Position numbers and translations under genes: made by a program
The notes under the pieces: model-generated
Told to the model about the DNA's origin: nothing
Seen by the model: the letters and a program-made list of their open reading frames with translations, nothing else
Database searches by the model: none
In this document: piece after piece, positions 170-64,000 of the stretch
How the letters are laid out: each line of letters opens with the position of its first letter
Numbering within the stretch: position 1 is the first letter of the stretch
Source: an uncultured bacterium
GTDB taxonomy: Bacteria > Zixibacteria > MSB-5A5 > GN15 > FEB-12
Assembly: GCA_965372795.1 (NCBI GenBank)
Contig: CBDVDR010000007.1
Location: 64,001-128,000 of the forward strand
DNA: 64,000 bases
Direction of reading: 5' to 3'

Positions 170-2194
170 ATGATAAGGACAAAATTATCAACATCACAAA
201 ACAGGGTAGAAATTCTATATCTAATCACACTTCTGTTGTATTTAGGTGCATCGTTTATCCCTGAGTACCGAGTTTGGGGATTTTCTGTTTGGAGTCATCA
301 ACCTGTTTATATCCCAATAATTCTATCAATTTTAAGTATTGCTTTATTTTCTTATTCCATTAATAATGATATTTCAAATTCTAATAATACAGAATCTACA
401 AAGCAATTTTGGTTATTTTCTATAATTATATTTATCAGTTTTGTTTTACTTTTTATAGTTTTTCGTTCACGTGCTCATTTTTTAGGTGACGGTTATACTG
501 TTCTATCAATATTGTCATCCGATGACCCGCTTTTAAAATCTCGTGAAATTGGAGAAGTGTACGCTCATTTATGGCTTAAGGACTTGTTAGCCTATGGAGG
601 TGAGAAAGCGGCACTTTTGAGCTTTCAATTGATTTCAATTATCTCCGGAGCTTTATTTTTATTAACCACCTTGTATTATTCATTTAAACTGTTCACTAAT
701 AATAAAAATCGAATTCTATTTTCACTCGGAATAATATCCGGTGGATATATGCTAATGTGCTTTGGTTATGTCGAGAACTACTCGATTTTTGTTTTATCTG
801 TTCTAGTTTATACATTTTTAGGATTATCTATATCGCTTGGGAAATCCTCACGATGGCTGATAATACCTGCCCAAATTGCAGCTGTTATATTTCATATCTT
901 TGGTGTAACGCTGATACCTGCAACAGTATATCTCTTATTTTCAAACTCAAAATATGGTAATAAATTAAAAAATATAGATAAGAAAACTAAAACACTAATT
1001 CTATTTGTTTCAGCTATTGGAGCAGTTGCCGGTTTCATATACTACTACAAAACAAATTTCTTCTTCTATTACTCTATCGTACCATTTATTTCTGATAAAT
1101 TCACATTGGATAATTACAGTATGTTTTCAATTGCTCATCTTTTGGATATGATCAATCTACTAGTGCTTGTCATCCCGGGAATAGGGTTATTATTGCTAAG
1201 TTTGTTCACGACCAAAATATCAATTCTATTAAAAGAGAGTCATTATTTCTTTTTGATGTTATTGTCTGTTTCTGTTTTAGGTGCGTCATTCATTTTTGAT
1301 CCAAAACTTGGAATGGCAAGAGACTGGGATTTGTTCTCATATATTGCGATTCCTATTTCAATTTTCTTTTACTACTATTTAATTCGTAATCGAGCAAATT
1401 TCCCTACTAACGTAACAATAGTTTTATTATCAATTTTCCTGGGATTCTTTTCTCTTTCAGCCAGAGTTATCAGTATCAATCAACCGGAAGTAGCAGTTGA
1501 GAATTTTACCGACTATATCAACTTAGATAAAGGTAAAAATCGAAATGCGAGATATCTTCTGGCAACTTACTACAAAAACATGGGTGACAATTTAGCAGTT
1601 AAAGAAATAGTAAAAAAATGGAATACCGATTATCCGGAAAGAGTTGTATTTCAAACCGGGTTTGCCTTAAAGAATGAAGGTAAAATAGTTGAAGCATCAG
1701 GATATTTTCAAAAAGTAATGCAAATGAACCCATCCTATATTGATGCCTGGATTAATTATGGTGAATGCTTAACTAATTTAAAAAGATATAGCGAAGCAAT
1801 CCAATATTTAGAGGTAGGGGTTGGCTTAAGCCCCTATGATGCGAGTGGTTATAATAACCTTGGGGTTTGTTTTATGGGTACTGCTCAATATGATAAAGCA
1901 GAAAAAGTACTAAAAACTTGTGAGTCTTTGCCACAAGTAACTTTTGTGACTTTGTATAATCTAACTACTTTGTATCGATTGACAAGAGACCACGAACTGT
2001 ATCTGGAGTATTTAATAAAATCAGGGACTCATAAAGAAGCAGGCCTTTTTGCATTAAAAGAACTTGGTAATTATTATTTAGTAACAGCCCAATACCAGAG
2101 AGCTAAACAGATTTATTTAAGAGGTATTAATCTTGGCATGGATCAACGTTTTGAAGATTCCTTAAGACAAAATTATCCAATGCTTGGGTTATAA
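170..2194 (+). CDS. Multi-pass membrane protein with C-terminal TPR repeats (possible GT-C-type glycosyltransferase-like)
   Basis: About 11-12 hydrophobic segments in the first ~435 aa, then TPR-like repeats (DAWINYGECL, SGYNNLGVCF). Confidence 0.7.
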   Translation: MIRTKLSTSQNRVEILYLITLLLYLGASFIPEYRVWGFSVWSHQPVYIPIILSILSIALFSYSINNDISNSNNTESTKQFWLFSIIIFISFVLLFIVFRSRAHFLGDGYTVLSILSSDDPLLKSREIGEVYAHLWLKDLLAYGGEKAALLSFQLISIISGALFLLTTLYYSFKLFTNNKNRILFSLGIISGGYMLMCFGYVENYSIFVLSVLVYTFLGLSISLGKSSRWLIIPAQIAAVIFHIFGVTLIPATVYLLFSNSKYGNKLKNIDKKTKTLILFVSAIGAVAGFIYYYKTNFFFYYSIVPFISDKFTLDNYSMFSIAHLLDMINLLVLVIPGIGLLLLSLFTTKISILLKESHYFFLMLLSVSVLGASFIFDPKLGMARDWDLFSYIAIPISIFFYYYLIRNRANFPTNVTIVLLSIFLGFFSLSARVISINQPEVAVENFTDYINLDKGKNRNARYLLATYYKNMGDNLAVKEIVKKWNTDYPERVVFQTGFALKNEGKIVEASGYFQKVMQMNPSYIDAWINYGECLTNLKRYSEAIQYLEVGVGLSPYDASGYNNLGVCFMGTAQYDKAEKVLKTCESLPQVTFVTLYNLTTLYRLTRDHELYLEYLIKSGTHKEAGLFALKELGNYYLVTAQYQRAKQIYLRGINLGMDQRFEDSLRQNYPMLGL

Positions 2195-2203
2195 ATTTCA
2201 AGA

Positions 2204-4894
2204 TTAGTTTAGGCTGCTATAGGATTCGTATTTTTCAAGTAGTGCTTTAAAGCGAGGGATGTTTTGTAACGGCGCAAAAATCGGATCGGCTCTTAAATAT
2301 TTAACTGAGCTCCAGGATGGAATTGATAAGAGCAACTCAAGTTCTTCAATTGCATTATCATATTCTCCAACGATTGTGTATATAGTAGCCATGACCATGA
2401 CTGCGTCCGGTCCTCACCAGTGGCAGTCGTCAACCGACATCAACTCCTTGGATGTTTTACCCGCTTTTATAGCTTCTTCTTTATTACCCATTAAGGCATA
2501 TGTGAGACCAAGTTCTGCAAAGGCATGAAACTCGGGTTCACCTTGATCAATAATATTAGTTAAGATAATCCTTGAAGAATCATAATAAATTAGAGCCGAA
2601 TCATGATGTCCTGAGAGTTCATATAGATGGCCTATGTTCATCTGTATAATATGAGGTGATCGCTCAGCAATCGTTCCTTTAATATTGCTTAACTTTCGAA
2701 TATTCTCTATTTCAATTTGAGGGTCATATAAATCAGGAATGTATCTCCACAGCCCAAGTGAGGTACCTGAAGTCAGTTCATAGGTTGATATTTCAGCCAA
2801 TCCAACTTTTTCATATAATGTTTTAAATTCTTCAACATCGTATTCGATATTACCATAACGCAGAAGGTTAATTAAAACTTTCAGATACGCAGCATCAGCA
2901 TTATTAGGATCCAGAACCAGAGCACGATTTATATAATTATCCGCTTCTTCGTAATTCCTAGTCATACTTAAACTATTGGCTATGTAAAAGTATCTTCTAT
3001 CAGACAAGGGGTCAATTCGGATAGCTTCTTCAAATTTTTCATTCGCTTCATCCCATTTTCCCTGACGCATTTTAACAATTCCAATAGCCTGTGAGAGTTC
3101 GGCATTGCTGGTAAGTTCGGATTTGGCTCTATTAAATGATGACAATGCTTTTTCGTAATCTCTTTCGATATAATTGGAATAGGTACCCATCGCAATTTGA
3201 GCGGTTGGCAAAGTAGGATCAAGAGCCAGTGCTTTTTCAGCAGCTTTTAAAGCTTCATTTTTATGATATTTTCCATTGACCGATGTAAAATGAAAATTAA
3301 AGGTCGAATGATTCATTGATTTTTGAGCCCAGGCTAAAGCGAAATTTGAGTCAAGGGCTATGGCTGAGTCAAACATATTTATAGATCCCTGAAAATCAGA
3401 CATCCGTAAATTATGACTTGAAATCTCAAGACCCCGAAGATAAAAATTATACGCCGCCATATTTGTAGTCGGAGCATAATCAGGAGCCAGTTTATCTGTT
3501 TCCACTAAAGTCAAGCCTAAGGCGATTACAATCTGTTCAGCTATTTTTGATTGAACATCAAATATTTGCACTAATTGTTGCTCATAAATATCCGACCACA
3601 TCAGATAATTATCACTGGTTTTGGTCAATCTGGGGGTAATGCGAATACGGTCGACTTCACCGGATTTATCCCAACGTATAGTCGCCTCAAGAACATAATC
3701 GGAATTGGTTTCCTGTCCGATTTGTTCAATGCTCTTGTCAGTCTCTTTAAATTTATCAGCAGTTCTTGGTGAAATAACACGCAGTCCCTTTACAGTCGAC
3801 AAACGTGAACTGATTTCATCACGAATACCATCGGAAAAATATTCATCCTCTCCGGCACCAAGATTCTCAAACGGTAACACAATCAATACTGGCGGTTTAT
3901 TTACTATTTGTTCGGGTTGATTATAAAAATACATAAAACCGATTACAATTATAAGAAAAACTGCAACCGCTGACATTTTGAAATATAAATTTTTAAATGA
4001 CGTCTCATGTGTTCTACCAGAAGGATAGGTATGTGATTGCGAATCATACATGAGTCTTTTTAAGTCAGCAATGACACCCTCGGCTGACTGATATCTGAGT
4101 TCTTTGTCTTTTTCGATAAGTTTTAAAATAATATCCTGCAACTTATCTGGAACGTCTGATTTATACCTGTTAATTGGTTCCGGATTACTTTCAATAATAG
4201 CTTTTAATGTCGCGCCTTCATTATCACGCTTAAAAGGAGTTCTTCCGCATAATAATTCATACAGCACGATACCCAATGAAAAAAGGTCCGAACGGTGGTC
4301 GATATCTCTCCCTGAAATTTGTTCGGGTGACATATATGAAACAGTTCCAAGGGTCGAACCGGTTTTGGTTAGTTTATCATCACCCTCTGTGGCAGCTAAA
4401 CCAAAATCCAGCAGTCGTATTCTATTTGTCCTATCAAGGGCAATATTAGCAGGTTTTATGTCTCGATGGGTAATGCCATGTCGATGTGCTTCCCCCAGTC
4501 CCTGACATATTTGCAAGGCGAATTCGATGATAGCATCTGCCGGCTGTGGTTTCTCTTTTATGAAATAACGCAGCGAATGTCCATCAATATTTTCCATAAC
4601 AAAAAAAGGACGACCATTAAACTCACTTACTTCGTGGATAGTAACAATATTTGGATGGTTCAGCTTTGCAACAGCTTGAGCCTCTCTTTGAAATCGTTTT
4701 TTAATATCATCATTATTTAAGAATTGTGTAGGAAGAAATTTCAGGGCAATATTTCGTTTCAGTTTTGTATCTTCAGCCAGATAAACCTCACCCATACCAC
4801 CGGCACCAATTTTTTCAATTATTTTGTATTGATGAACCACGGTTCCTTTAGTCAGAACAACAACTGTTCGGGTATTGTCATCTTTTTGATTCAT
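2204..4894 (-). CDS. Hanks-type Ser/Thr protein kinase - TM - TolB-like - TPR protein; 896 aa if the in-frame TGA at 2414-2416 is read through (candidate selenocysteine)
   Basis: Kinase motifs GAGGMGEVY, ALK, HRDIKPAN, DFG, GTVSYMSPEQ; TM AVAVFLIIVIGFMYF; VLPFEN TolB-like motif; TPRs. ORF 2204..2398 is in frame 5 codons past the TGA and supplies the typical tail of this architecture (LRADPIFAPL..PRFKALL). Confidence 0.88.
2387..2402 (-). promoter_or_regulatory. Candidate bacterial SECIS element of the kinase gene
   Basis: Minus strand AGUCAU-GGUC-AUGGCU: 6-bp stem with one G.U, loop starting GGU, beginning 11 nt after the UGA. Confidence 0.65.
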
Positions 4895-5258
4895 TATACC
4901 TTCACGATCAGGTTTACACTTTTTAGCTTAAGACTATACTCCAATTTTGAGTGAATTCAATATACAATATCTTTATTTTCAACCAAGACTTTATTGATAA
5001 ATTTTACCTACATTACTAAAATCTACGATAGGAATAAGTTATTTTCTGAAAATATTGAGATATATACTAATCAGATATTTTTATATTAAGTATTTGAATG
5101 AAAGATGCTTATAGAGATTAATATTGGGTCATAAATTATATGTATTCTAATTGTAATCAATCAATCTTTGAGTTATAATCGACTAAAAGGGCTAAATAAA
5201 AGCCTTGTGTGATTCGTCAGTAATTGATATAATTTAGTAACTCAAACCGGGAATAAAT

Positions 5259-52001: not shown

Positions 52002-53375
52002 TTACTTATTAACAACCAATTCCGACATAAATTTCTCAGCTGACATCTTTTCACAGCTAAAAATGACCTTCTTTACATTTTCCATCTCTGTCTCAGAAAG
52101 CAATCCTTCAGCCAGAGAATTAAATTTAACGGTCAAATCATCATCGGTCATCGGTTCTCTTGGATCACCTTTGGGATATTCAAGATATTCTTCATATGAA
52201 TTTCCATCATTGGTTGTAATCACAACTTTAGATGGCTGTTTGGCGGGGAACATCTGTTCAAATTCCTGAGAGGCTTCCCCTTTGATTTTGTCAATAACTT
52301 CCCAAATCCGGGCATCTTTCATCTTTTCATCAGAGAAGGACTGGGTTGTAATCTGTTTGTCAACTATGGCAGCGGCCAGACAATACGGCAGAGAGTGATC
52401 GGCGGTCTCTCTTGATTCCGGACGATATTTGTGCTGATCAAAAAGAATATCACAAGCACGGGCAATCGTAGTAACGACTACTTCTTTGATATCATCATAG
52501 TTAATATCATTATCGCGGATAACTTTCAGTGTACAACTTAAATGAGTATGGGTTAAGGCTTCGGTTGGGAATGCTTTCATACTGCATTCTAAAATTTTAT
52601 ATTTTTCTCCCAAACCGCCAATCAGTTTATCTTCGTCCCATTTTGGTCCGAAAACATCCATCAATCCTTCTTTGCCTTCAAACACCGCTTCGGTTCCGCT
52701 GTAACCCTTTTGTGCCATCAGAGCCGCAAAGACTCCGCTCTGCACAGCCATCGGATCAACCGTATTTTTCATCATCGTCAATTTCCCGGCAGTAGGACAC
52801 CCGATAGTATGATTATGCGAACCATTGATACCGATAGCATTAACCATTTGATCAACAGTGAGACCGAGAATTTTACCGGCAACAATTGGAGACACAAATT
52901 GAGTCAAAGTTGCATGGTGCCATTTTCTTTCTCTTACTCCGGGTACGGCAAATTCACAAAGACGCATCTCAAATTCATAAGCTAAAACAATAGCCGTGAT
53001 GACTTCTTTCATGGACGCACCAACCATCTCAGCCATAGAGAGGGCAGCCGGGATGATATCTGATGGATGCGAAGGATCTTCTTTCCAATAGATGTCGTTG
53101 TAATCAAGCGCCCGAAACATCAGCGAATTCACCAGCGTAGCATTGACTGCCGGTATCCGATCACCAAATCCGATAACGGTAGCTTCTTCTTTACCAGCCA
53201 TATTGATATAAATATCACGCAGAATATTAACATCTTTCGTATGATATCCGCCATAGGCGCATCCGACCGAATCATAAAGATAGCGTTTAACTTCTTCAAT
53301 GACATCCGGCGGAAGATCGTTGTAGTTTAAGTTGACTGCAAATTCAGAAATTTTTCTTGAGATTGTCTTTTTCAT
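52002..53375 (-). CDS. MmgE/PrpD family protein
   Basis: RALDYND, HPSD, G.EG, RETADHSLPY, PKGDP. Confidence 0.9.
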   Translation of the reverse strand: MKKTISRKISEFAVNLNYNDLPPDVIEEVKRYLYDSVGCAYGGYHTKDVNILRDIYINMAGKEEATVIGFGDRIPAVNATLVNSLMFRALDYNDIYWKEDPSHPSDIIPAALSMAEMVGASMKEVITAIVLAYEFEMRLCEFAVPGVRERKWHHATLTQFVSPIVAGKILGLTVDQMVNAIGINGSHNHTIGCPTAGKLTMMKNTVDPMAVQSGVFAALMAQKGYSGTEAVFEGKEGLMDVFGPKWDEDKLIGGLGEKYKILECSMKAFPTEALTHTHLSCTLKVIRDNDINYDDIKEVVVTTIARACDILFDQHKYRPESRETADHSLPYCLAAAIVDKQITTQSFSDEKMKDARIWEVIDKIKGEASQEFEQMFPAKQPSKVVITTNDGNSYEEYLEYPKGDPREPMTDDDLTVKFNSLAEGLLSETEMENVKKVIFSCEKMSAEKFMSELVVNK

Positions 53376-53402
53376 TTTCTTTAAACTCTCTATTCAATAG
53401 AT

Positions 53403-55370
53403 TTATAAATTCTTTTTTACCCAGTTTTCAAGACCTTCAACAACTACCAGTTCCTGTGCAGCGGCACCGACCGGACTGATAGAATAAGTTTTCCCATTGT
53501 ATTCAATGATAGAGTTCTGGAAATCTACAACAACTTCCCCTCCGGATGCAACAGTTAGTTTTTCAATCCCGAGTTCTTTTTTTAAATCATCAACCAGTTC
53601 CGGACATTCGATAGTAAGAAACCCATTATTGAGCGCATTCCGTTTATATGTTTCGCTGAACGAACCGGCAATGACTAATTTTATCCCGCGATATTTTAAA
53701 GCCGTAGCCGCCTGTTCACGTGAAGAACCGGTTCCAAAATTGTACCCGCCGATTAAAATATCACCCTCATTAACAAGTTTTCCGAATTCGGAATCATAGT
53801 TTTCCATTACTACTTCAGCTTGTTGCTTTGGAGTAAAATCATCGACATAGGTATATTTTCCGGGATAAATACCATCGGTATTTAAATTATCCTGATGGCA
53901 GAAAATAAGCCTGCCTTCCAATCCTATTGAGAATCCATCAATAATCGGAACCGAGCCTGATGCTGTTGATTTTTGGGTCTTTATATTAATATCACCTTTG
54001 ATAGAAGCATCTTCGATTTCAAACGGCATGTCAACATGTCCAGCTATTGCCGAAGCGGCAACCACAGCCGGAGAGGCAAGGTACGCTTTGGCATCACGGG
54101 AGCCCATGCGTCCTTTGAAATTTCTATTTGTAGCCGAAATGCCAACTTCACCGTCTTTTAACAGTCCGGCACCAAGACCGATACAAGGTCCGCATCCGGG
54201 AGACAGCTCAATCGCACCCGAATCAAGCAGCGTCTGCCAATCACCGCGGCGTTCGCTTTCTTTTTGTACTTCACTTGAGGCAGCCGCAATATAGAACTCA
54301 ACACCATCAGCCACCTGTTTGCCTTTGACAACCTCTGCTGCTTCGGCAAGATCCTCAACCCGGCTATTAACGCAAGAGACCAGATATGCTTTATGAATCT
54401 TCATCTGTTTCTCTTTCATCTCAGTTGCGGGAGTCATAATTTTGACATGGTCCGGACCGGACAGATAAGGAGTTACTGAATCCAAGTCCAAAGTTAGTTC
54501 TTTAGCGTAAAAAGCGTCAGGATCCGGCTGAACAATATTAGCTTTTAATTCATCCAGGCGTTGTTTATTTAAACGGGGATGAGTTCCATTCCCATCAGAA
54601 TCAGATGGCACTCCTTCTAGCCCTCTTTTCTCAACAAAGGATATTCTCTGCTTGAGCCAATTGAGTGTAACTTCATCTATTGGGAAAACACCGGCAAGCG
54701 CTCCCCACTCGGTAGTCATATTTGAAATTGTTAATCTTTCATCAACCGAAAGATTAGCAATCCCATCACCAGAAAATTCTATGGCATGGTTCAGTACTTC
54801 ATCTTTATTGAAAAAACCACATAATGCAATAATGACATCTTTCCCGGTTACTCCTTTGCGAAGTTTCCCATTCAAATTAACTTTTGCTACCGGCGGAACC
54901 TGCCACCAGGTTCTTCCCGTTGCCCATATCGCCGCCGCATCCGTTCTAACAATCGGAGTTCCCAAACATCCCAATCCTCCATGCATATTGGAGTGACTGT
55001 CCGAGGCTACAATCATTCTTCCCGGCCAGGAATATCCTTCTTCACATAAAATCTGATGACCGATACCTCTTCCAGCCGGGTAAAAATCAACACCCATCTC
55101 TTTGGCAAAGGCTTCGATCCGGGCATACTTGGCAAGGTTTTCATCGCTTCTATTTTGAACATTATGATCAAGAGTAAAAACGACCTGACGAGGGTTGGCT
55201 ATTTTGGTAGCACCTATTGATTTAAATTTTGGTATAACTGCCCCGGTGTTATCATGGGTCATAACATGTGCCGGTTGTATCGACAGATAATCTCCGCTTT
55301 GGACAATCTGATTTTCTGCTAATCCAACAGCATACTTTTGAGCAATTTTTTCAACTATATTTTGAGCCAT
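53403..55370 (-). CDS. Single-chain homoaconitase-like (LysF/Lys4-type) aconitase-family hydratase
   Basis: MTHDN, DH, GIGHQ, SDSHSN, VSCVN, CGPCIG, TNRNFKGRMG, fused swivel domain NTDGIYPG..GSSRE. Confidence 0.85.
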   Translation of the reverse strand: MAQNIVEKIAQKYAVGLAENQIVQSGDYLSIQPAHVMTHDNTGAVIPKFKSIGATKIANPRQVVFTLDHNVQNRSDENLAKYARIEAFAKEMGVDFYPAGRGIGHQILCEEGYSWPGRMIVASDSHSNMHGGLGCLGTPIVRTDAAAIWATGRTWWQVPPVAKVNLNGKLRKGVTGKDVIIALCGFFNKDEVLNHAIEFSGDGIANLSVDERLTISNMTTEWGALAGVFPIDEVTLNWLKQRISFVEKRGLEGVPSDSDGNGTHPRLNKQRLDELKANIVQPDPDAFYAKELTLDLDSVTPYLSGPDHVKIMTPATEMKEKQMKIHKAYLVSCVNSRVEDLAEAAEVVKGKQVADGVEFYIAAASSEVQKESERRGDWQTLLDSGAIELSPGCGPCIGLGAGLLKDGEVGISATNRNFKGRMGSRDAKAYLASPAVVAASAIAGHVDMPFEIEDASIKGDINIKTQKSTASGSVPIIDGFSIGLEGRLIFCHQDNLNTDGIYPGKYTYVDDFTPKQQAEVVMENYDSEFGKLVNEGDILIGGYNFGTGSSREQAATALKYRGIKLVIAGSFSETYKRNALNNGFLTIECPELVDDLKKELGIEKLTVASGGEVVVDFQNSIIEYNGKTYSISPVGAAAQELVVVEGLENWVKKNL

Positions 55371-55391
55371 TATTAATTTCCTTTAAGATAT

Positions 55392-55940
55392 CTATGCATC
55401 CTTAACGAGATCAAAATCAATAAAATCACAATGATGAAAAATAATACTTTCTGCTAATCTTTTTTCTCCGGCACCCTCTTTTGAATGAGTAGCAATTACA
55501 TGCATTACCTCTGAAGGGACACCATGTTTGAAGGCAAGTCCGACACCACTGAAAGGATGACGGATATGTTTACCATAGTCGGATTTTTGGGGAGCACCGT
55601 CAACAATTTCAAATTCTAAAAGTTTGCCGACATCAGCAAGCAATGCTCCGGAAATCAGGTAGTCACGATTTACTTTTGTTTTATTGGCACCATGTACTTC
55701 ATCCAAAACTTCATCACAAGCAATACACATACGACAAACTGCGCGGACATGATCAATAAAAGTAATATTTACATTCTCAGCTAACAGAGTAAAGGGAATG
55801 TTGCGAAGTAATTCTTCAGACCAACCCCGAAACTCAATTGCTTCAATCCAGCAATCAATAGTTTGACCGCGAAGTTTTTCATCATTTATCAATTCTACTT
55901 CAGGTAATAATCTTTTTACTAATTCTATTTTCTCTGACAT
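55392..55940 (-). CDS. HD-domain (HDIG-type) protein with HD replaced by AD
   Basis: DHV..V, ALLADVGK, RHP.SG, H.I..HS, HCD. Confidence 0.8.
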   Translation of the reverse strand: MSEKIELVKRLLPEVELINDEKLRGQTIDCWIEAIEFRGWSEELLRNIPFTLLAENVNITFIDHVRAVCRMCIACDEVLDEVHGANKTKVNRDYLISGALLADVGKLLEFEIVDGAPQKSDYGKHIRHPFSGVGLAFKHGVPSEVMHVIATHSKEGAGEKRLAESIIFHHCDFIDFDLVKDA

Positions 55941-56229
55941 AATCAGCCCTTTCACACGATTCAATAATTTGGGGCAATCTACATAATTTGATCAGTCCTT
56001 GCAATACAACTTTTAAAGGAATCATGGATTTATTGAAATTATTTATATTAAATATATCTATTGATCATTAAAACTATAAATATTTTTATAACATCATCAG
56101 CATACCATAAAGCGCTGTATAACAGCGTTATAACATTATTATACATAACTAATCATTGATTTCTTAGTGATTAATGTCACAAAAGTATCAATTTTGTATT
56201 GACTCGGTCGATAAAACTACTTACTTGGT

Positions 56230-56245
56230 TAGTTAATGATAACTA
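56230..56245. promoter_or_regulatory. Putative TetR operator 1
   Basis: TAGTTA-ATGA-TAACTA just before the tetR RBS. Confidence 0.65.
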
Positions 56246-56260
56246 TATGGAGATTCTCTT

Positions 56261-56863
56261 ATGAGAAAAAAAATTGATAGAAAAAAACAGATACTTGAAG
56301 AAGCTACAAAATTGTTCAGCGCCCATGGTTATGACAAAGTAACTGTTAAAGATTTATCAATGGCAGTTGGAATTTCTGAACCGGCATTATACCGTCACTA
56401 TCAATCTAAAGCAGCAATATATGACACTGTTCTTCTCTCAATAGAATCACGTCTCGATTGCACTGATTTATTTATTGAGTTAGAAAAAATAGATGATTTA
56501 GATAAAATTCTAAAAACACTAGCTAGTCATATTCTTGTGTTCTTTACCGCTAATGAAGATCTGTACCGCCTACTCCTTTATTCAGCCTTAAAAGGACACG
56601 AAAAAGCCAATCAGATTTATCAAATTATCAGAGGATCATATATCAAATTTCTTATCAAAAAATTTGATGAGCTCTATCAAAAGGGCACAATAATCGAAAA
56701 GAAAAATGATATTACTGCCCGATGTTTTGTAGGAATGGTATTTGACTGTTCCTTAGGCACTACTCTTTGGAAAAATTTCCAGGGCAAAGTGTACAAACCA
56801 CACGAAGTTATAGCCAATAATATTCCAATCTATGTAAAAGGTTTATCAACAAAAGCTGAATAA
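56261..56863 (+). CDS. TetR/AcrR family transcriptional regulator
   Basis: IL..A..LF...GY...TV, GISEPALYRHY.SK helix-turn-helix. Confidence 0.93.
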   Translation: MRKKIDRKKQILEEATKLFSAHGYDKVTVKDLSMAVGISEPALYRHYQSKAAIYDTVLLSIESRLDCTDLFIELEKIDDLDKILKTLASHILVFFTANEDLYRLLLYSALKGHEKANQIYQIIRGSYIKFLIKKFDELYQKGTIIEKKNDITARCFVGMVFDCSLGTTLWKNFQGKVYKPHEVIANNIPIYVKGLSTKAE

Positions 56864-56905
56864 AGAATTATTTGAAATCAATGTATTTTTACACTTACAC
56901 GTAAG

Positions 56906-56923
56906 TTAGTTAACGCTAACTAA
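56906..56923. promoter_or_regulatory. Putative TetR operator 2
   Basis: TTAGTTA-ACGC-TAACTAA just before the RBS of the decaheme cytochrome. Confidence 0.65.
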
Positions 56924-56940
56924 TGCACCAAGGAGGTATC

Positions 56941-57876
56941 ATGTTTCAACACAACAAAGATGGTTCCCGATATCGCAAGTTTCTTGTGATAGGTATGGGA
57001 TTACTTGCCATCTTGCTTGTTGCTCCCGCAAGTTTTGCAGGAGTTGCAAACGATGTGTGTGCCGGTTGCCATGATGAAGTTAGTGAATCATTTCACAAAA
57101 CTTCTCACAGCAGCTATTTAGTGCAGGAGCAGTTCAGTTGTGAAAGCTGTCATGGATCAGCTATTGATCATATCAATAGTGGCGATCCGGAACAGATTAT
57201 CAACCCTGCTCGTCATGATCAGATTGGCGGAAAAGAACTCTGCTTGAGCTGTCACGACAATCATCGTTTTGATGAATGGAGTATTTCATCCCACAACACA
57301 GCCGGTCTTACTTGTGCCGATTGCCACAAGGTTCATGAAGACGGCGGCAATGTGGCGAAGAAATCTGCTCCGGAACTTTGCTATAGTTGTCATAGTAATG
57401 TTCGAGCTGCAATGTCTATGCCATCACACCACCCAATCATGGAAGGTCATATGACCTGTCAGGATTGTCATGGCGTTCATGGCGAAAAACCAGTAATGGC
57501 AATGAACGACGGAAGCAAAGAATTATGCTATAGTTGTCATGCAGAAAAAGAAGGACCTTTTGTTCACGAACATGCCCCGGTGAATGAAGATTGTATGATT
57601 TGTCATTCTCCTCATGGCACGGTTGCCAAAAGTCTTCTTAAACAGAGCGAGCCATCGTTATGTTTGAGCTGTCATCCAATGCATTTCCATGCTACAGTTG
57701 TCAGTATTGATGGAGATTTTACAACTCCGCTTGCACCTGAAAGAGCCGGAACATCAACTTCCGATTCCTTCAAATCAGGCATGTTGACCAAATGTACTCA
57801 GTGTCATACTGAAGTTCATGGTTCCGATATGCCTTCACAAACAATTTCAACCGGCGCCGCCGGATTAACCAGGTAG
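56941..57876 (+). CDS. DmsE/MtrA/PioA family periplasmic decaheme cytochrome c
   Basis: AGGAGG RBS; signal peptide; 10 CxxCH; HHP, GPF..EH.PV, HGS motifs. Confidence 0.93.
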   Translation: MFQHNKDGSRYRKFLVIGMGLLAILLVAPASFAGVANDVCAGCHDEVSESFHKTSHSSYLVQEQFSCESCHGSAIDHINSGDPEQIINPARHDQIGGKELCLSCHDNHRFDEWSISSHNTAGLTCADCHKVHEDGGNVAKKSAPELCYSCHSNVRAAMSMPSHHPIMEGHMTCQDCHGVHGEKPVMAMNDGSKELCYSCHAEKEGPFVHEHAPVNEDCMICHSPHGTVAKSLLKQSEPSLCLSCHPMHFHATVVSIDGDFTTPLAPERAGTSTSDSFKSGMLTKCTQCHTEVHGSDMPSQTISTGAAGLTR

Positions 57877-57885
57877 GAGAATTAA

Positions 57886-60066
57886 ATGAACAAATACAAA
57901 ATGATTTTTGTTGGTTTGCTCGTTCTTCTGCTGGCAGGATCTGTACTCTCAGCCGTAGAAAACGATGCTACAATCGAAAAGTATTCACTTTGGATCGGTA
58001 CTCATTACACCGAATTTTCTGATTATACTAAAAAAGTCGGAAAATATAATCTTGGTAATAATGAAATGTTACCTGAATTCATGGTGAATTACATTTCCAA
58101 ATCATCAAACGGAATGTTTTCACTTGATGGACATTACTTCGATGATCAAAATATTTTAGGTAAAGTAAAAACCACTATTAGTGATAAATTTAAAGCCAAA
58201 TTCCAATATCGTTCAATGACTTTACAGGAAGGTCAGGACCTTCTTGAAAATATTGAAGCCAGAGAATGGTTGGAATCAGCAGGTAAACCTGGTGGAAAGA
58301 TGTTAACCCACGAAATTCTTGATGTTGATGCTGATTACAAAACTCATCGTCAGGAAATTTTGGGCGAACTTGAAGTTCTACTATCAAAGAAAAACAATGT
58401 TCGTTTGATAGCTGCTCATCGTTCGGTCTTAAAAAAAGGTACCGAACAGAAGATTGCTTCCAACCATTGTTTTAGCTGTCACTTAACTTCGCAAAGTGCG
58501 AAGGTTGATCAACGGCAACACCAGTTTGAAACCGGTATTGATGCTGAAGTCATAAATTTCGATCTTGGATACCGTTTTGGGTATCGCTTGTTCGAAAGTA
58601 ATGCTACACCATCAACTGCCTTTTATGATGATGCTGTTCATCCTGTAAATGGAGGTTCCGGTGGAGAATTCGGAGCACGGGTGATCTATGATGACACAAT
58701 CACAACTTTCAGCCGGTATCCGAAAACCGAAAAAATATCACATAAAGTTCGCTTAAAAGGTGACGTTGGCACTGGTTATTTAACCGGTACAGTCGGATAT
58801 AGCAAAACCGAGAATAAGTATACTCAGCTTGCAAATCAAGCCTGGGTTGGAGCCGGAAGTTATTCTTTATTAATGAACGATAAAACACGTTTAATTGCTA
58901 AAGTTTCGGCAACTAAAGTAAAATCTGATAATGTCTTTATCGATTTACCGACTTATCGCGATGGTTTAGCTGATGGCAATTCATATGATTTTGATTATAT
59001 GCGATATTCATCACTTGATCGGATGGAATCAAAATTCATTGCTGAAATTATCACAAAACTAAACCCAAAATTGACTTTGTCAGTTTTAGTTGGATATAAC
59101 TTCACTAACCGTGATTATTATCCGGTTCGTAATGATGGAATTCAAACAAAAAAACTTATCGGTCAGTTTAAACTGAGATTTAGAAAAGGGCTTCGTTATA
59201 ACAACTCGTTCAAATACCGGTTTGAGAAAATTACTGATCCATTTGTTTCCTCAAGAGGATTGTTTGAAGAAGTTGGACATGGTAATGATATTCTGACTCC
59301 TTTGGTTCCAACTTCAAGTTGGGTCTTCTATTTCCAAAGAGAAGAACTTCGTTATCAGGATATTACTACGATGCCTACTCAGATCCACAAGTTTGAATGG
59401 CGTTCAACTTATTCACCTAACTCGAAGTACAGCATTAATATGGGTGTTAATGGCAAACTTGATAAAAACAGTGAATTGGGTCAGTTGGATGTGAAACATG
59501 TATCATACCAGCCAAACTTTTACATGAACTACACTCCAGATGCGAAATGGGCAATGACAACCGGCTATACTTATAGCTATGACAAGTCACAATTACCGAT
59601 TACGGTAGCCCTTTTCGATGGCTGAGGTGGCCATATTTTCCGCGACGCCGGTGGCGACGCTCGACACTATGGTTCTATGTACACCATGGCTGATTATGAA
59701 AACAAAGTTCACAATATTTATTTTACAACCAACTTCTTACCAACCGAAAAACTCCGTATTTTCGCTACTTTGGCTTACAACAAAGCTGAAGGATCGTTAG
59801 AAGAAGTCATTATGCCCGATATTGAAGCCCAATTAAATGGCGATCTTGAGGATCAGGATTTTACATTCGAAGAAATGCACACTTATAGTGATCTCGATTA
59901 TAAATATCTAAATCTCAATATTGGGCTTTCTTATGCTCTCACCCCAACTGTTTCCTGGACAGCTGATGGTGATTTTATTGATTTAACTGATAATACAGGG
60001 TATGTCTACGGAAATGAATCCGGATCATATTTCTTAATTCGGACCGGATTTAAGATAGATTTCTAA
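57886..60066 (+). CDS. MtrB/PioB-like outer membrane beta-barrel with CxxCH and in-frame TGA (candidate selenoprotein, 726 aa)
   Basis: Signal peptide; CFSCH at aa 195-199; TGA at 59623-59625 (codon 580); same frame stays open to 60066 and ends in a beta-signal (RTGFKIDF). Confidence 0.85.
59629..59674 (+). promoter_or_regulatory. Candidate SECIS element of the porin gene
   Basis: Lower stem GGCCATA/TATGGTT; upper stem GCG-A-CGCC-[GGT]-GGCG-A-CGC (59642-59660). Confidence 0.7.
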
Positions 60067-60094
60067 AAATCCTCTTTTTCTTAACTCCAATCTT

Positions 60095-60130
60095 CAAGGT
60101 TGTGTTATTTTCCAAAATAACGCAACCTTG
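60095..60130 (+). terminator. Long hairpin downstream of the porin (terminator or mRNA stabiliser)
   Basis: CAAGGTTGTGTTATTTT-CC-AAAATAACGCAACCTTG; no U-tract. Confidence 0.55.
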
Positions 60131-60287
60131 TGAAAAATAGCACTTGCGGTAATCAAGATAATATATATATTAGGCTATTAAAGATAGATTTTGGAGAGAA
60201 TAGCAGAAGGTTAACTTTTTATTATACAACGGCTTTTTAATAATAAGATAGTTTAGATTGTTTTAAAAAATACAAAAAAGACCGGAA

Positions 60288-61484
60288 ATGAACATGATGA
60301 AATACTTAAGTTATATACTAATCATTCTTTTAGCAGGCTCATTATCAGCCAATGAGAAATGCATCGAATGTCATCAAGCAAACCCTCCCCAGGGAATGGA
60401 AGCTGCCAAATATGATATTCGGACGCTGGATCTTTCTGTGCATAAAGATGCAGACTGTATTGATTGCCATAAAATTGATCCGGAAAAAAAACATGCCGGC
60501 GAAAAAGGTGTTCTTTGTGGCAATTGTCATGAAGATATTGAAGAGACCTATTGCAGATCTCCTCATCAAAATGGTCAACAAGATAATATTGACTTACTCC
60601 CAAACTGTGTGAAATGTCATGGCGGTCATGACATTCTTCGAAGTGATGATACAAACTCCATAACCAACCGCAAAAAGATTATAAAAATATGCATTAGCTG
60701 TCATGAAGACGAAAAATTAACCAGTGAAGTTAATCAGATTCCAGAAGCGGCAATGATTAAATCTTATGAAAATTCAGTTCATGGAAAAGCCTTGCTGATC
60801 GATGGCAACGAAGAAGCTCCTTCTTGTATTGATTGTCATGGAAGTCATTCTAATTTACCATCTGATAATCCCGATAGTCCGATTTATAAAACTCATATAG
60901 CCGAAACCTGTGGTAAATGCCACTTAGAAGAAGCTAAACATTTTCAGGAATCGATACATGGAGAAACTCTTTCCAAAGGTGTCCTGGAGTCACCAACCTG
61001 TACAAATTGTCACGGTGAACATAACATAAAGGCTCATCTTGATCCTGAATCAAAAGTTTATGCAACTAATGTTGTAAAAACCTGCAGTGGGTGCCATACC
61101 TCTGAGGTTATAGTAGGAAAGTATGGTCTTAAAGCTGACCGCATTGAAACATTCAAAGAATCTTTCCATGGAGTAGCAATAGAATTTGGTGAGACTAAAG
61201 CCGCTAATTGTGCATCCTGTCATGGGGTTCACGATATTTATCAACAATCCCATCCAAAGTCTTTGATAAATAAAGATAATATTCAGGCAACTTGCGGAAA
61301 ATGTCATGATGATCTTCCGGCTGATTTTTCACAAGGCACATTTCATAAATCTGCCAGCGATAAAGAATCCGGCGCAGAATATTATGTTAGAAATTTCTAT
61401 GTTTGGTTTATTACCATTTTAATCTTTGGTTTCATTATATATCGTGTTCTTGAATATAAGCGTCGTGTAAAACGTGTGGAGTAG
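60288..61484 (+). CDS. Membrane-anchored multiheme cytochrome c (11 CxxCH)
   Basis: Signal peptide, 11 CxxCH, repeated S.HG motifs, C-terminal TM. Confidence 0.92.
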   Translation: MNMMKYLSYILIILLAGSLSANEKCIECHQANPPQGMEAAKYDIRTLDLSVHKDADCIDCHKIDPEKKHAGEKGVLCGNCHEDIEETYCRSPHQNGQQDNIDLLPNCVKCHGGHDILRSDDTNSITNRKKIIKICISCHEDEKLTSEVNQIPEAAMIKSYENSVHGKALLIDGNEEAPSCIDCHGSHSNLPSDNPDSPIYKTHIAETCGKCHLEEAKHFQESIHGETLSKGVLESPTCTNCHGEHNIKAHLDPESKVYATNVVKTCSGCHTSEVIVGKYGLKADRIETFKESFHGVAIEFGETKAANCASCHGVHDIYQQSHPKSLINKDNIQATCGKCHDDLPADFSQGTFHKSASDKESGAEYYVRNFYVWFITILIFGFIIYRVLEYKRRVKRVE

Positions 61485-61492
61485 TTATAGAG

Positions 61493-62557
61493 ATGTTTAA
61501 TAAAAAAATAAAATTGACCTTCTTCATGAGTGCTTTCCTATTGCTTCTTTTTGCATCAGATATTTTTGCATTAGAAAAATGCCTTCTTTGTCATAGGAAA
61601 CATGATCTGGTTAAAACTGAAGAGACCGGTCGAAAAGTATCACTTTTTGTAGACGAAGAGTTACTCGCACAATCTGTACATTCCACCAGAATCTGTACCG
61701 ATTGTCACGTGGACATAGTTGACATTCCACATGAAAAGGGTGTAAAAAAAGTTAATTGTCGTCGGTGTCATTATTCCGGTAACCCGATTGGAGCTCCTGA
61801 AGGGGCTTTATATGATCAATATGAACATAGCGTTCATGGTCTTGAAGTTGCAGCTGGAAATCAAAAAGCACCTGTTTGCCAAAATTGTCATGGATCCCAT
61901 GATATTTTTGCACCTGATTCTACAGCATCATCAATAAACAAAGCAAATATTCCTGCAACATGCGGGAGCTGTCATATCGATATTTACGCAACTTATCAGG
62001 AATCAGTTCATGGAGTTGCTTTAAAAAATGGTAACTTAGATTCACCTGTCTGTTCTGATTGTCATGGCGAACATAGCATTGCCAGACCAGAGGACCCAAC
62101 CTCGTCTGTTTATGGTACAAATCTTACAGCAACCTGTTCTGATTGTCATGGTCCTAAAGGAGTCGTATCAAAATATGGCATTAAAACCGACCGGGCAGCT
62201 ACATTTGAAGATTCATTTCATGGCGTAGCTCAAAAAATGGAAAGCCGGTTTGTTGCCAATTGTTCATCATGTCACGGTTTTCATGATATCCGATCAGATA
62301 ATGATCCAAAATCGATGATTCATCCTGACAATATTCCACAAACTTGCGGACAAACAAACTGTCACCCTGAAGCAAGTTCCACTTTTGCCACAGGACAGAT
62401 TCACATTGATCCAACCAGTGAGGAATCCGGTATACTTTATTATATTTCAAAGTTTTTCCTGATTCTAACAGTTGCGACATTAATAGGTTTATTATTATTT
62501 ATATTTCTTGATCTCTTCCGCCGGGCAAGATCATCTAGAGAAAAGAGTGGTCATTAA
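61493..62557 (+). CDS. Membrane-anchored multiheme cytochrome c (8 CxxCH plus 1 CX4CH)
   Basis: Signal peptide; heme motifs counted; C-terminal TM; paralogous to the preceding gene. Confidence 0.92.
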   Translation: MFNKKIKLTFFMSAFLLLLFASDIFALEKCLLCHRKHDLVKTEETGRKVSLFVDEELLAQSVHSTRICTDCHVDIVDIPHEKGVKKVNCRRCHYSGNPIGAPEGALYDQYEHSVHGLEVAAGNQKAPVCQNCHGSHDIFAPDSTASSINKANIPATCGSCHIDIYATYQESVHGVALKNGNLDSPVCSDCHGEHSIARPEDPTSSVYGTNLTATCSDCHGPKGVVSKYGIKTDRAATFEDSFHGVAQKMESRFVANCSSCHGFHDIRSDNDPKSMIHPDNIPQTCGQTNCHPEASSTFATGQIHIDPTSEESGILYYISKFFLILTVATLIGLLLFIFLDLFRRARSSREKSGH

Positions 62558-63507
62558 TGGACAAAAACGCTAACAACTTTAACAAAAACAGACAATCTCT
62601 GATTAGTCAATTATCGGATAATATTGTTAATTCTTTTGTCTCATTATTCAAAGAAAGAACTGACCAAAAAACCAGAGATAAAATTGTAAAAGAAGTAAAT
62701 GAACGGCTTAATTTTGAAATTAATGTTACTCTGAATGAATTGGTAACAAAATATGCTCCTGAAAAGAGAGTCGATGTAAAAGAAGAAGCCCCCCCTCGTA
62801 CTTTTGAAAGATTTGGTAAGAACTTCCGGGCTCAACATATGCTTATGTTCGTGTCGGTCATCATTCTGGTTATTACCGGAATGCCATTAAAATTTCCCGA
62901 ATTTGATTTTGCCAAGTTCATCATCATTGACCTGCTGGGAGGATTAGAAAATTCCACCTTCCTTCATCGGGTAGGTGCGGTTGGATTGATCATTGTTGGT
63001 CTCTGGCATTTGATCTATACCGTTGCTTCCCGTTTAGGGCGGCGTGATTTTATTTTAATGATACCATATCCACAGGATATAAAAGATTTCTTCACTACTA
63101 TTTTTTACTATATCGGAAGAAGAAAAACAGGAGCCAAATTCGGACGTTTTAGTTTCATTGAAAAATTTGATTATTGGGCTGTATACTGGGGCATGATCAT
63201 TATGATTGGTTCCGGCAGCATTATGTGGTATAAGGAAATTTTTCCAAAATATATATTTGATATTGCACGTGAGGCTCATTCTGATGAAGGATTACTGGCA
63301 ACATTAGCAATTGTTGTTTGGCATTTCTATAATGTTCATTTCAATCCTGAAGTCTTCCCTATGAGCTGGGCGTGGTGGCATGGTCAACTAACAGAAAAAG
63401 AGATGAAACATCATCATCCCCTTGAATATGCGCAAATCATGGAAGCTGAGAGTAATGAAATTATCTCTAAACAGACACAGGATAACAATAGCAAGGAGCC
63501 TGAATAA
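62557..63507 (+). CDS. Cytochrome b (FdnI/CbcB-like) membrane subunit
   Basis: R.QH, ITG.P, LHR, WH, EKFDYWA..WG, AHSDE..LA, WHFY, HHPLEY. Confidence 0.9.
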   Translation: MDKNANNFNKNRQSLISQLSDNIVNSFVSLFKERTDQKTRDKIVKEVNERLNFEINVTLNELVTKYAPEKRVDVKEEAPPRTFERFGKNFRAQHMLMFVSVIILVITGMPLKFPEFDFAKFIIIDLLGGLENSTFLHRVGAVGLIIVGLWHLIYTVASRLGRRDFILMIPYPQDIKDFFTTIFYYIGRRKTGAKFGRFSFIEKFDYWAVYWGMIIMIGSGSIMWYKEIFPKYIFDIAREAHSDEGLLATLAIVVWHFYNVHFNPEVFPMSWAWWHGQLTEKEMKHHHPLEYAQIMEAESNEIISKQTQDNNSKEPE

Positions 63508-64000
63508 TGCTTTCTTTATTTTCTGATTTATTTCAGGTCTTAAAAACACATAAAAAACAACTTGGAATTTTATTATTGATAGTTGTGACCATATCTATCA
63601 TGGGTGGACTAATTCTCAAATACGAAACAACTCAATCTGAATTTTGTGATTCGTGCCATTATATGGCTCCGTATGTCAGACATTGGGAAGCTTCTTCTCA
63701 CGCAGATGTAGATTGTCGCCAATGCCATGATTATGGCGTAACAGATTTAATTGGTTCTGCTATCAAATATGGTACAAATTCTTATAATAACCGACCAAAA
63801 GCAATCGTAAATGATGAAAGCTGTCTTGCTTCTGGATGTCATGAAAATCAAAATCTTGAAGGTGCTATAGAATACAAAAACAATGTGTTTTTTGATCACT
63901 CCAAACATCTTGAAAAAGCATTACGTGGCGAAAAATTACGCTGTACATCATGCCATAACCAAATTGTTCAATATGATGACGACAGTCAAGGGCATATGAG
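63507..64000 (+). CDS. NapC/NirT-like membrane-anchored multiheme cytochrome (truncated by the window edge)
   Basis: Translated by hand: N-terminal TM, FCDSCHYM, W..SSH, CRQCH, CLASGCH, CTSCH. Confidence 0.88.
   Translation, partial: MLSLFSDLFQVLKTHKKQLGILLLIVVTISIMGGLILKYETTQSEFCDSCHYMAPYVRHWEASSHADVDCRQCHDYGVTDLIGSAIKYGTNSYNNRPKAIVNDESCLASGCHENQNLEGAIEYKNNVFFDHSKHLEKALRGEKLRCTSCHNQIVQYDDDSQGHM

Follow-up and report, generated by a model that had tools for sequence, protein, structure and literature searches.

Does the sequence between bases 57886 and 60066 encode two proteins separated by a stop codon, or a single outer-membrane protein in which a UGA is read as selenocysteine (Sec), and what could such a protein do next to a decahaem cytochrome? 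The question is raised by a 64,000-nucleotide stretch of DNA (hereafter the window) from a low-GC source genome; the named relatives closest to it are MAGs of Zixibacteria, the FCB group and GN15. The explanation that best accounts for the locus, and that we hold to be very probable, is a Sec-containing barrel of the OmcL/GSU2204 family that partners the decahaem. The features on which it is based are collected in Table 1.

Table 1. Features of the porin-decahaem locus and its surroundings (positions in the window)
Feature	Position	Strand	Evidence
TetR-family regulator, first gene of conserved three-gene unit	56261..56863	+	Pfam TetR_N, 52.4 bits
Decahaem c-type cytochrome, MtrA/DmsE type (OmcK/GSU2203-like)	56923..57876	+	ten CXXCH; TIGR03508
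Outer-membrane barrel of the OmcL/GSU2204 family, predicted selenoprotein, 726 residues	57886..60066	+	NF041027; AF2 model; MtrB fold match
Signal peptide, approximately residues 1-23	57886..57954	+	N-terminus MNKYKMIFVGLLVLLLAGSVLSA; modelled helix at residues 2-20; putative cleavage site
CFSCH haem c-binding motif, residues 195-199, after invariant H194	58468..58482	+	conservation in homologues
UGA, almost certainly a selenocysteine codon, residue 580	59623..59625	+	same TGA column in 22/22 loci; Cys in 2/8 distant full-length representatives
C-terminal 146 residues past Sec: final five barrel strands and beta-signal ...FKIDF	59626..60063	+	
Predicted bSECIS upper stem-loop, GGU apical loop at 59650-59652	59642..59660	+	-10.1 kcal/mol; covariation; values within the four bSECIS criteria
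17-nt inverted repeat, 29 nt past the stop codon	60095..60130	+	arms 60095-60111 and 60114-60130, 94% complementary
Downstream cytochrome module	60288..63998	+	11-CXXCH protein, 8+1-haem protein, FdnI-like cytochrome b, membrane-anchored c-type cytochrome

One gene with an in-frame UGA

The two open reading frames, 57886..59625 (579 codons and the TGA) and 59626..60066, lie in a common frame, as the original prediction had stated, and together they form one 726-codon gene that contains a lone in-frame TGA. When this TGA is taken as U, translation yields 726 residues and crosses the site as ...VALFDG-U-GGHIFRDAGGDARHYGSMYTM... The signal peptide and the beta-signal that had been ascribed to the joined product are both present, with MNKYKMIFVGLLVLLLAGSVLSA at the N-terminus and ...FKIDF at the C-terminus. 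That these bases are one gene is strongly supported.

Were the UGA a genuine stop codon, a lesion in a pseudogene or an error of sequencing, the two reading frames would be separate or dead, and the databases would at first sight agree, as gene callers split the gene and all 120 database homologues among the matches listed are 558-597 residues long and end at the TGA; in addition, M601 is nearly invariant and might pass for a start. However, the ATG at 59677 (M598) is not conserved, the C-terminal piece alone lacks a signal peptide, as the N-terminal piece lacks a beta-signal. Moreover, conservation past the TGA is on a par with that before it (mean column conservation of 0.61 and 0.63, respectively), and the downstream part has tblastn identities of 40-59% in 16 loci and a terminal F that is at least 90% conserved. 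Finally, the column within FDG-U-[GA][GA][HG] is TGA in 22 of 22 loci, which belong to different genomes, and a codon shared in this way is not a sequencing error. A stop, lesion or error is already contradicted by this column and by the downstream conservation, and the chance left to it is vanishingly small.

The wider family carries the same signature. Thirty of 31 genome matches have exactly one TGA, the 31st being a fragment that covers residues 632-726. Among 150 representatives at 50% identity, 81 finish exactly at ...[FMY][DN]G, just ahead of the Sec column, while another 27 consist of an orphan C-terminal piece. In the Sec column the eight distant full-length representatives have Cys in two cases (P0191 and P0222) and Gly or Leu in the other six. 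As for the general use of the codon, TGA serves as an ordinary stop in 5 of the 35 long frames of the window.

The genome also contains the machinery for Sec insertion. selA, selB, a Sec-type selD and tRNA-Sec each score above their cut-offs (68.9 bits against 47 for the tRNA); selA adjoins selB, and selD itself carries one in-frame TGA. selA is present in 28 of the 30 genomes with a TGA-containing porin and was not found in two that are 85% and 93% complete. Nevertheless, this co-occurrence is not discriminating, because 58 of 61 relatives have selA, with or without the porin. The original prediction had named three observations that would speak against it, namely a sequencing error at 59623-59625, homologues with neither Cys nor TGA at the site, and a genome devoid of sel genes; none of the three came out against it, given the shared TGA, the occurrence of TGA or Cys in homologues and the sel genes of the genome, respectively.

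A conserved hairpin downstream of the UGA

A GC-rich patch had been noticed after the TGA, and the 55 bases downstream indeed have a G+C content of 58%, compared to 37% in the window. The stem found there consists of 4 bp, an A.A mismatch and 3 bp, with 59642-59649 pairing to 59653-59660, and its GGU loop lies 24 nt past the TGA, exactly where it had been placed. The criteria for bSECIS elements given in a review are a loop of 3-9 nt with a G within its initial two nucleotides, a stem of 4-16 bp, a spacing of 16-37 nt from the UGA and a minimum free energy of -7.5 kcal/mol or lower; the corresponding values here are a 3-nt GGU loop, 7 bp (4+3), 24 nt and -10.1 kcal/mol.

The strongest evidence for the hairpin comes from comparison among loci. 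Over 21 loci, the observed covariation score was reached by none of 500 shuffles, and six of the eight pairs show changes on both sides. In particular, pair 34-42 is AU in nine cases, GC in eight, UA in two and CG in one, and is never unpaired. RNAalifold retained nothing beyond the upper stem and a single closing pair. Of the two-tier structure first described, the upper stem holds, whereas the lower tier (GGCCAU with AUGG) does not, being lost in relatives with insertions. Folding of the single sequence was no better than that of shuffles (z of -0.44, -0.60 and -1.45), and a scan of 59400-59900 against Rfam, which apparently has no model fitting this bSECIS, returned only a chance match to mir-329 (E of 5.8).

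Since a hairpin might in principle stimulate read-through of another kind, the UGA could be passed by near-cognate insertion of Trp or Cys, or under a local recoding signal, rather than by Sec. The hairpin conforms to bSECIS rules, however, Cys and Sec replace each other among homologues, the Sec machinery of the genome is complete and selA accompanies nearly all TGA-containing porins, so that such decoding is highly improbable. The TGA at 59623-59625 almost certainly encodes selenocysteine, and SelB and tRNA-Sec would decode it under the direction of the hairpin at 59642-59660.

An MtrB-type barrel of the OmcL/GSU2204 family

The family name given in the original prediction proved to be real: the porin falls into NCBIfam NF041027, named "GSU2204 family CXXCH-containing (seleno)protein", and scores 537.1 bits where the cut-off is 350. 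Positions 2-580 of the 580-position profile fall on residues 13-579, so that the match ends one residue before the TGA. The proposed kinship to MtrB-type porins is likewise upheld by the AF2 model, which has 26 strands (pLDDT of 74.6) and whose top fold match, by two aligners, is MtrB (6R2Q_B; E of 3.6e-20 and TM of 0.64/0.71 in one, Z of 26.5 in the other). The superposition has an rmsd of 3.9 A over 578 residues, at 11-12% identity. At the sequence level, no porin match was obtained in Pfam, including MtrB_PioB (PF11854), at E of 0.001 or below, nor in a profile search of PDB sequences; PF11854 is annotated, in precomputed form, on one porin homologue (P0068). Taken together, membership in the OmcL/GSU2204 family and a 26-strand MtrB-type outer-membrane barrel are strongly supported.

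In the model, the CFSCH motif, found at residues 195-199 as had been indicated, sits at the tip of the long hairpin that strands 7 (172-192) and 8 (199-222) make, and Sec belongs to the hairpin of strands 21 and 22. Fourteen strands of the 26-strand barrel separate one hairpin from the other, which would put haem motif and Sec on roughly opposite walls by strand count. The positions of the motif tips themselves are not predicted, because the pLDDT is below 50 at both (195-197 and 578-589).

The decahaem partner and its surroundings

The partner decahaem expected from the original prediction directly precedes the porin in 16 of 16 loci. It passes the cut-off of TIGR03508, the DmsE/MtrA decahaem family, with 216.9 bits against 192.2; its best-scoring family is nonetheless NF041028, the GSU2203 type, with 317.5 bits, just below the cut-off of 325, over profile positions 30-317 of 317. 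The protein has a signal peptide and no lipobox. A TetR homologue precedes the decahaem in 14 of 16 related loci and completes the three-gene unit.

A gene for a lipoprotein cytochrome beside the porin-decahaem pair was not found in the window. Downstream, the module of multihaem proteins and cytochrome b, whose membrane-anchored c-type cytochrome extends beyond the window end, is probably the inner-membrane and periplasmic electron supply. Comparable multihaem and cytochrome b genes occur in the fetched flanks of 9 of 16 related loci, where their position and orientation vary. The inverted repeat behind the porin is a possible terminator or operator; it is not among the matches of a consensus terminator scan, and over 55900-60400 the consensus scans returned about as many promoters (13 compared to 15.7 expected) and terminators (2 compared to 2.8) as chance would give.

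By homology with MtrAB, the decahaem would sit inside the barrel and carry electrons across the outer membrane. We consider it likely that the decahaem threads the barrel in this way.

Haem motif, selenocysteine and the outer face

The CXXCH of the porin is present without exception in the read-through homologues (21 of 21) and in 9 of 9 rows that include the distant full-length forms, and every Sec-type representative that is complete enough keeps it (63 of 63). A c-type haem would be attached at C195 and C198 in the periplasm, prior to barrel assembly. The motif might alternatively be a thiol or metal site that forms a chalcogen redox centre with Sec. Shewanella MtrB has a CXXC motif; the tip of a tight beta-hairpin is an unusual place for haem c, as a haem on a loop crossing the outer membrane would be. 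A plain CXXC, however, would not need the His that invariably follows the second Cys in all of these members, and the organism encodes many c-type cytochromes; on these grounds a thiol or metal site is disfavoured and appears improbable.

The loops that carry the two motifs are conserved to an unusual degree, as positions at least 90% conserved make up 31% of the long loops, 18% of the strands and 11% of the short turns. The barrel haem and Sec580 would lie in long loops on the outside of the barrel, each topping an extra-long hairpin, and might jointly constitute the outward-facing redox site of the conduit, replacing an MtrC-type surface cytochrome, which is not encoded in the conserved three-gene unit. 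This combined proposal, from periplasmic haem attachment to the replacement of the surface cytochrome, is put forward tentatively and is less likely than not to be correct throughout. A joint haem-Sec site would require both hairpins to fold inward.

The two groups might also act separately. Six of the eight full-length forms keep the CXXCH with Gly or Leu at the Sec position, from which it follows that Sec is dispensable for the role of the haem motif. The haem could then extend the decahaem wire to the surface, while Sec would be an independent surface site, for instance a metal ligand together with H583 and H594, a scavenger of peroxide or polysulfide, or a site that touches a partner cytochrome filament. 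In agreement with this division, strand count places the motifs on opposite walls, the CXXCH is universal while Sec or Cys is not, and the close group conserves a U-x-x-H with an invariant H594 nearby. H583 and H594 are, however, absent from the two Cys forms and from the other distant forms, and the metal or substrate is a candidate only. Separate roles are a possibility to be taken seriously, if a rather unlikely one.

Alternatively, Sec580 could be the distal axial ligand of the barrel haem, with His/Sec coordination, and the mouth of the barrel would then be catalytic for sulfur, selenium or similar species rather than a plain relay. Such a haem would be comparable to the His/Cys haems of the sulfur enzymes TsdA, SoxAX and DsrJ. 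C195, C198, H199 and U580 are all invariant, with no further conserved Cys available for a selenenylsulfide; the distant full-length forms share no invariant His or Met besides H199 that might act as distal ligand in all of them; the two Cys forms retain Cys and neither H583 nor H594; and both motifs top extra-long hairpins in conserved loops. The distance of 14 strands between the hairpins and the six distant forms that have the haem motif with neither Sec nor Cys count against such a ligand, which we regard as unlikely.

A related and equally doubtful proposal, again drawn from sequence, makes the barrel a terminal redox enzyme in which the haem of strands 7/8 and the Sec580 of strands 21/22 meet over the pore mouth, His/Sec-ligated or with Sec adjacent to the haem. 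The site would draw electrons from the terminal haem of the decahaem inside the barrel and react directly with sulfur, selenium or metal species outside the cell. If true, this would be the first cofactor-bearing outer-membrane barrel of such a kind; we know of no natural selenolate-haem site described previously, and the barrel would be the first. A redox-active catalytic barrel with haem and Sec, acting on S, Se or metal substrates, was part of the original prediction as well, and no result of the analysis lends support to that part. The literature searched contained no experimental study of the porin, nor direct evidence for its Se or haem.

Relation to known electron conduits

The porin family has been listed as a selenoprotein before, and in this respect the finding is not new. 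Table 1 of a 2026 review enters the GSU2204 family as a selenoprotein, and the review credits it to Zhang & Gladyshev 2008, whose main text makes no mention of outer membrane, cytochrome c, heme or porin. By profile (NF041027), the porin belongs to the same family as GSU2204 (OmcL) of Geobacter sulfurreducens, which is paired with GSU2203 (OmcK); both are reported to be up-regulated on haematite and magnetite. In the text of Murali et al. 2023, the pair is named the OmcKL conduit in HotSeep-1 and Seep-SRB2 and OmcK is called extracellular; the words 'selenocysteine' and 'selenoprotein' do not occur in that text, and 'CxxCH' occurs once, in the methods. OmcKL shares with the present locus the pairing of porin and decahaem with no adjoining third cytochrome gene, and Murali et al. 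2023 likewise describe an adjacent cytochrome as missing, there a periplasmic one. Unlike those, the copy described here comes from a low-GC uncultured genome and has a TetR gene in front.

The MtrB/MtrA/MtrC system of Shewanella (6R2Q) has a similar 26-strand barrel, which is the best fold match by a wide margin, and its partner decahaem is also of the DmsE/MtrA family. The present barrel differs in that it has no sequence-level match to MtrB, no MtrC-type gene adjoining it, and both a CXXCH and Sec of its own, whereas MtrB has, to our knowledge, no cofactor. The two-component layout of porin and decahaem with no surface cytochrome is known from PioAB and MtoAB as well; we know of no report of a haem motif or Sec in PioB or MtoB.

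Another predicted selenoprotein with c-type haem motifs in an outer-membrane electron-transfer cluster is ExtKL of Geobacter (GSU2937-2936), which is a soluble or periplasmic five-haem cytochrome and not a barrel, and whose cluster porin, ExtI, belongs to a different and smaller family.

Implications

The contribution of this locus is a new member of the family together with its anatomy, that is the topology, the conservation of the loops and the distribution of Sec, Cys or neither, and not a new kind of system. The porin gene is routinely split at the TGA in annotation, and outer-membrane electron conduits are therefore under-called in Zixibacteria-like and other genomes. Collectively, a widespread porin that combines a haem motif with selenocysteine is paired with a decahaem and has no gene for a surface cytochrome, which makes it an obvious, as yet unstudied candidate for the hand-over of electrons to the outside in two-gene conduits. 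The question is directly testable, because the culturable and genetically tractable Geobacter sulfurreducens has a member of the family.

Reading frame, family and fold of the porin

The OmcL/GSU2204-family porin gene runs for 579 codons from its ATG to a TGA, beyond which 146 more codons follow in unchanged frame up to a TAA. With the TGA read as selenocysteine (Sec, U), the product has 726 residues, with a typical signal peptide at its N-terminus, the junction ...VALFDG-U-GGHIFRD... and the C-terminus FKIDF. The original prediction, in which two same-frame open reading frames joined over the TGA give one product with both a signal peptide and a C-terminal beta-signal, is confirmed, as are the CFSCH motif and the GC-rich patch after the TGA (58% G+C in the 55 bases on its 3' side vs 37% in the whole window). 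By a mechanical count, TGA is the ordinary stop in 5 of the 35 window frames of at least 200 codons, so the genetic code as a whole is unchanged.

The earlier identification of the protein is also correct. The porin scores 537 bits, where 350 is the cut-off, on model GSU2204_Se_pt_1 of NCBIfam (NF041027, "GSU2204 family CXXCH-containing (seleno)protein"); this profile stops at residue 579, one short of Sec. Searches of Pfam and, by profile, of PDB sequences returned no match for the porin. An AlphaFold2 model built on 21 read-through homologues (pLDDT 74.6, pTM 0.69) contains 26 strands, and its best structural match is by far MtrB of the Shewanella Mtr complex, both in Foldseek (E 3.6e-20, TM 0.64/0.71; runner-up E 7e-9, TM 0.38) and in VIA-align (Z 26.5, rmsd 3.9 A over 578 residues; runner-up Z 16.9). 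At the level of the model, the proposed MtrB-type porin is thereby upheld.

The family is already catalogued as a predicted selenoprotein, and it is biologically intriguing. In particular, Table 1 of Zhang et al. (2026) places it among selenoproteins, and 5 of 120 listed database homologues bear the NCBI (seleno)protein name. A search of the literature found no experimental work on selenium or haem in the GSU2204/OmcL family.

Features of the porin locus, of the kinase-TPR gene and of the host selD
Feature	Position	Strand	Remarks
Ser/Thr kinase-TPR gene	4927..2207	minus	907 codons
In-frame TGA of kinase-TPR gene	2414-2416	minus	codon 838
Kinase-TPR hairpin	~2382-2397	minus	17 nt past UGA
PrpD/MmgE-like protein, fused homoaconitase/aconitase large+small subunit (655 aa), HD-domain protein	52002-55964	minus	divergently upstream of TetR gene
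TetR gene	56261..56863	plus	
Decahaem gene	56923..57876	plus	MtrA/DmsE-type
Porin gene	57886..60066	plus	ATG 57886; TAA 60064-60066
CFSCH motif	58468-58482	plus	porin residues 195-199
Porin TGA	59623-59625	plus	Sec580
Porin hairpin	59642-59660	plus	24 nt past UGA
Inverted repeat	60095-60130		17-nt arms, 94% complementary, 2-nt loop, 29 nt past porin stop
Downstream cluster	60288-63998		11-CXXCH cytochrome, 8+1-haem cytochrome, FdnI-like cytochrome b, membrane-anchored c-type cytochrome running off window
Porin long loops (predicted outward-facing)	residues 116-150, 239-280, 348-378, 451-498, 576-596, 639-669		
Host selD (locus L011 of the host genome)	G000:C4:204174-205094		one in-frame TGA

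The in-frame UGA as a selenocysteine codon

Five independent lines of evidence identify the UGA of the porin as a selenocysteine codon. The porin gene was recovered from 31 of 61 related genomes, the host counted in, by a six-frame search; exactly one TGA is present in 30 of these matches, and the one remaining, a fragment covering residues 632-726, falls short of the site. When 20 loci fetched from this search were aligned with two MAG contigs from a public genome collection, the TGA occupied one shared column in all 22, within the motif FDG-U-[GA][GA][HG], which rules out a sequencing error. Mean column conservation is 0.61 after Sec vs 0.63 before it.

The sel genes expected in the genome (selA, selB, selD and tRNA-Sec) are all found. 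selB adjoins selA, tRNA-Sec scores 68.9 bits (cut-off 47), and selD is a Sec-containing selenophosphate synthetase, since it carries an in-frame TGA of its own (...SCAG-U-ASKL...). selA accompanies the TGA-containing porin in 28 of 30 genomes, the two misses being 85% and 93% complete, a co-occurrence that discriminates little because selA is also present in 58 of the 61 relatives overall.

Database homologues were surveyed through an exhaustive HMMER search, as 150 representatives of 50% identity clusters. Of these, 81 stop exactly at ...[FMY][DN]G, just before the Sec column, and so do 14 of 33 unclassified representatives, whose printed C-termini were read by eye; 27 are orphan C-terminal pieces and only 9 are full-length. 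In eight aligned full-length representatives the Sec column holds Cys in two and Gly or Leu in six. Sec or Cys at position 580, as expected, is thus seen in the 22 loci and in two of eight distant homologues; the other six have neither.

In the hairpin after the UGA, stems of 4 bp and 3 bp flank an A.A mismatch and carry a GGU loop (-10.1 kcal/mol), in agreement with all four bSECIS criteria in section 5 of Zhang et al. (2026). As a single sequence it folds no better than its shuffles (z -0.44 to -1.45). A comparison of 21 loci shows covariation in the hairpin, with both-sided changes in 6 of 8 pairs; pair 34-42, for example, is AU in 9 loci, GC in 8, UA in 2 and CG in 1, and is unpaired in none. 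The observed covariation score was reached by 0 of 500 shuffles, and pairing drops from 83% to 27-56% when the partner is shifted by 1-3 columns. Of the two-tier hairpin first described, the upper stem, GGU loop and spacing hold, whereas the lower tier is lost in relatives with insertions.

A second in-frame TGA in the window

The Ser/Thr kinase-TPR gene also contains one in-frame TGA, in the context C-H-W-U-G-P (CxxU) and in the same column in 6/6 orthologues; in four homologues that lack the TGA the site holds I, L, Q or S, and neither Cys nor Sec. Its hairpin, a 6-bp GGUCAU/AUGGCC stem with a GGUC loop, is nearly invariant in nucleotides, with only one compensatory pair. The TPR end-of-group domain of NCBIfam matches wholly within the 69 codons past the TGA (53.3 bits vs a cut-off of 32). 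A term search of the table in Zhang et al. (2026) found no kinase/TPR selenoprotein family.

The decahaem partner and the gene neighbourhood

The gene ahead of the porin encodes a protein with a signal peptide that lacks a lipobox and with ten CXXCH motifs. It passes the cut-off of the DmsE/MtrA decahaem family (216.9 vs 192.2) and narrowly misses that of the GSU2203 family (317.5 vs 325), which is still its best-scoring family; the GSU2203-type decaheme partner proposed earlier is upheld. In 16 related loci with flanks of up to 8 kb, compared with the window's own neighbours as the only queries, the decahaem gene lies directly upstream of the porin in 16/16 and the TetR gene ahead of it in 14/16. 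The HD and aconitase genes hold the same place in three of the fetched loci (L043, L044, L053), and the PrpD-like gene in L043.

The downstream cluster resembles a quinol-linked electron module of the inner membrane. Multihaem and cytochrome b genes like its own occur in 9/16 loci, in varying positions and orientations, and relatives such as those of loci L049, L050 and L053 have one to three tandem copies of similar sets. No lipobox was found in the window on the cytochromes adjoining the pair. The inverted repeat past the porin, which the consensus terminator scan did not pick up, may be a terminator or a palindrome that binds protein.

Murali et al. (2023) treat the two proteins as a porin:cytochrome conduit, OmcKL, present in HotSeep-1 and Seep-SRB2, and note that no periplasmic cytochrome gene adjoins it; in their text "selenocysteine" and "selenoprotein" do not occur, and "CxxCH" occurs once, in the methods. 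In Kato et al. (2013), GSU2203 and GSU2204 are listed among genes up-regulated on haematite and magnetite.

Barrel topology and the proposed redox site

One gene encodes an MtrB-type barrel with an MtrA-type partner and carries a Sec codon with a recoding hairpin; by analogy with MtrAB, the decahaem would thread the barrel. In such barrels both termini and the short turns are usually periplasmic. All twelve turns of 2-5 residues lie on one side of the modelled barrel, opposite all the long loops. In the model, the CXXCH forms the 6-residue turn that joins strand 7 (21 residues) to strand 8 (24 residues), and Sec580 lies in the loop that joins strands 21 and 22, both 21 residues long. With the short turns all on one side, the usual rule would have both motifs facing outward, each at the tip of a hairpin that overtops its neighbours.

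Positions at least 90% conserved make up 31% of the long loops, 18% of strands and 11% of turns, whereas ordinary porins show the opposite pattern. This suggests a functional cap formed by the loops; modelled with low confidence yet conserved, they may fold around a cofactor invisible to the predictor. H194, C195, C198, H199, F577, D578, G579, U580, H594 and G596 are invariant, and the homologue alignment contains no other conserved Cys.

In the favoured but tentative reading, the barrel's own haem and Sec would provide a redox site that faces outward, in a conduit with no MtrC-type surface cytochrome. Three observations speak against one joint site: the two hairpins stand 14 strands apart, on roughly opposite walls, pLDDT is below 50 at both tips, and in 6 of 8 distant full-length homologues the haem motif is kept with neither Sec nor Cys.
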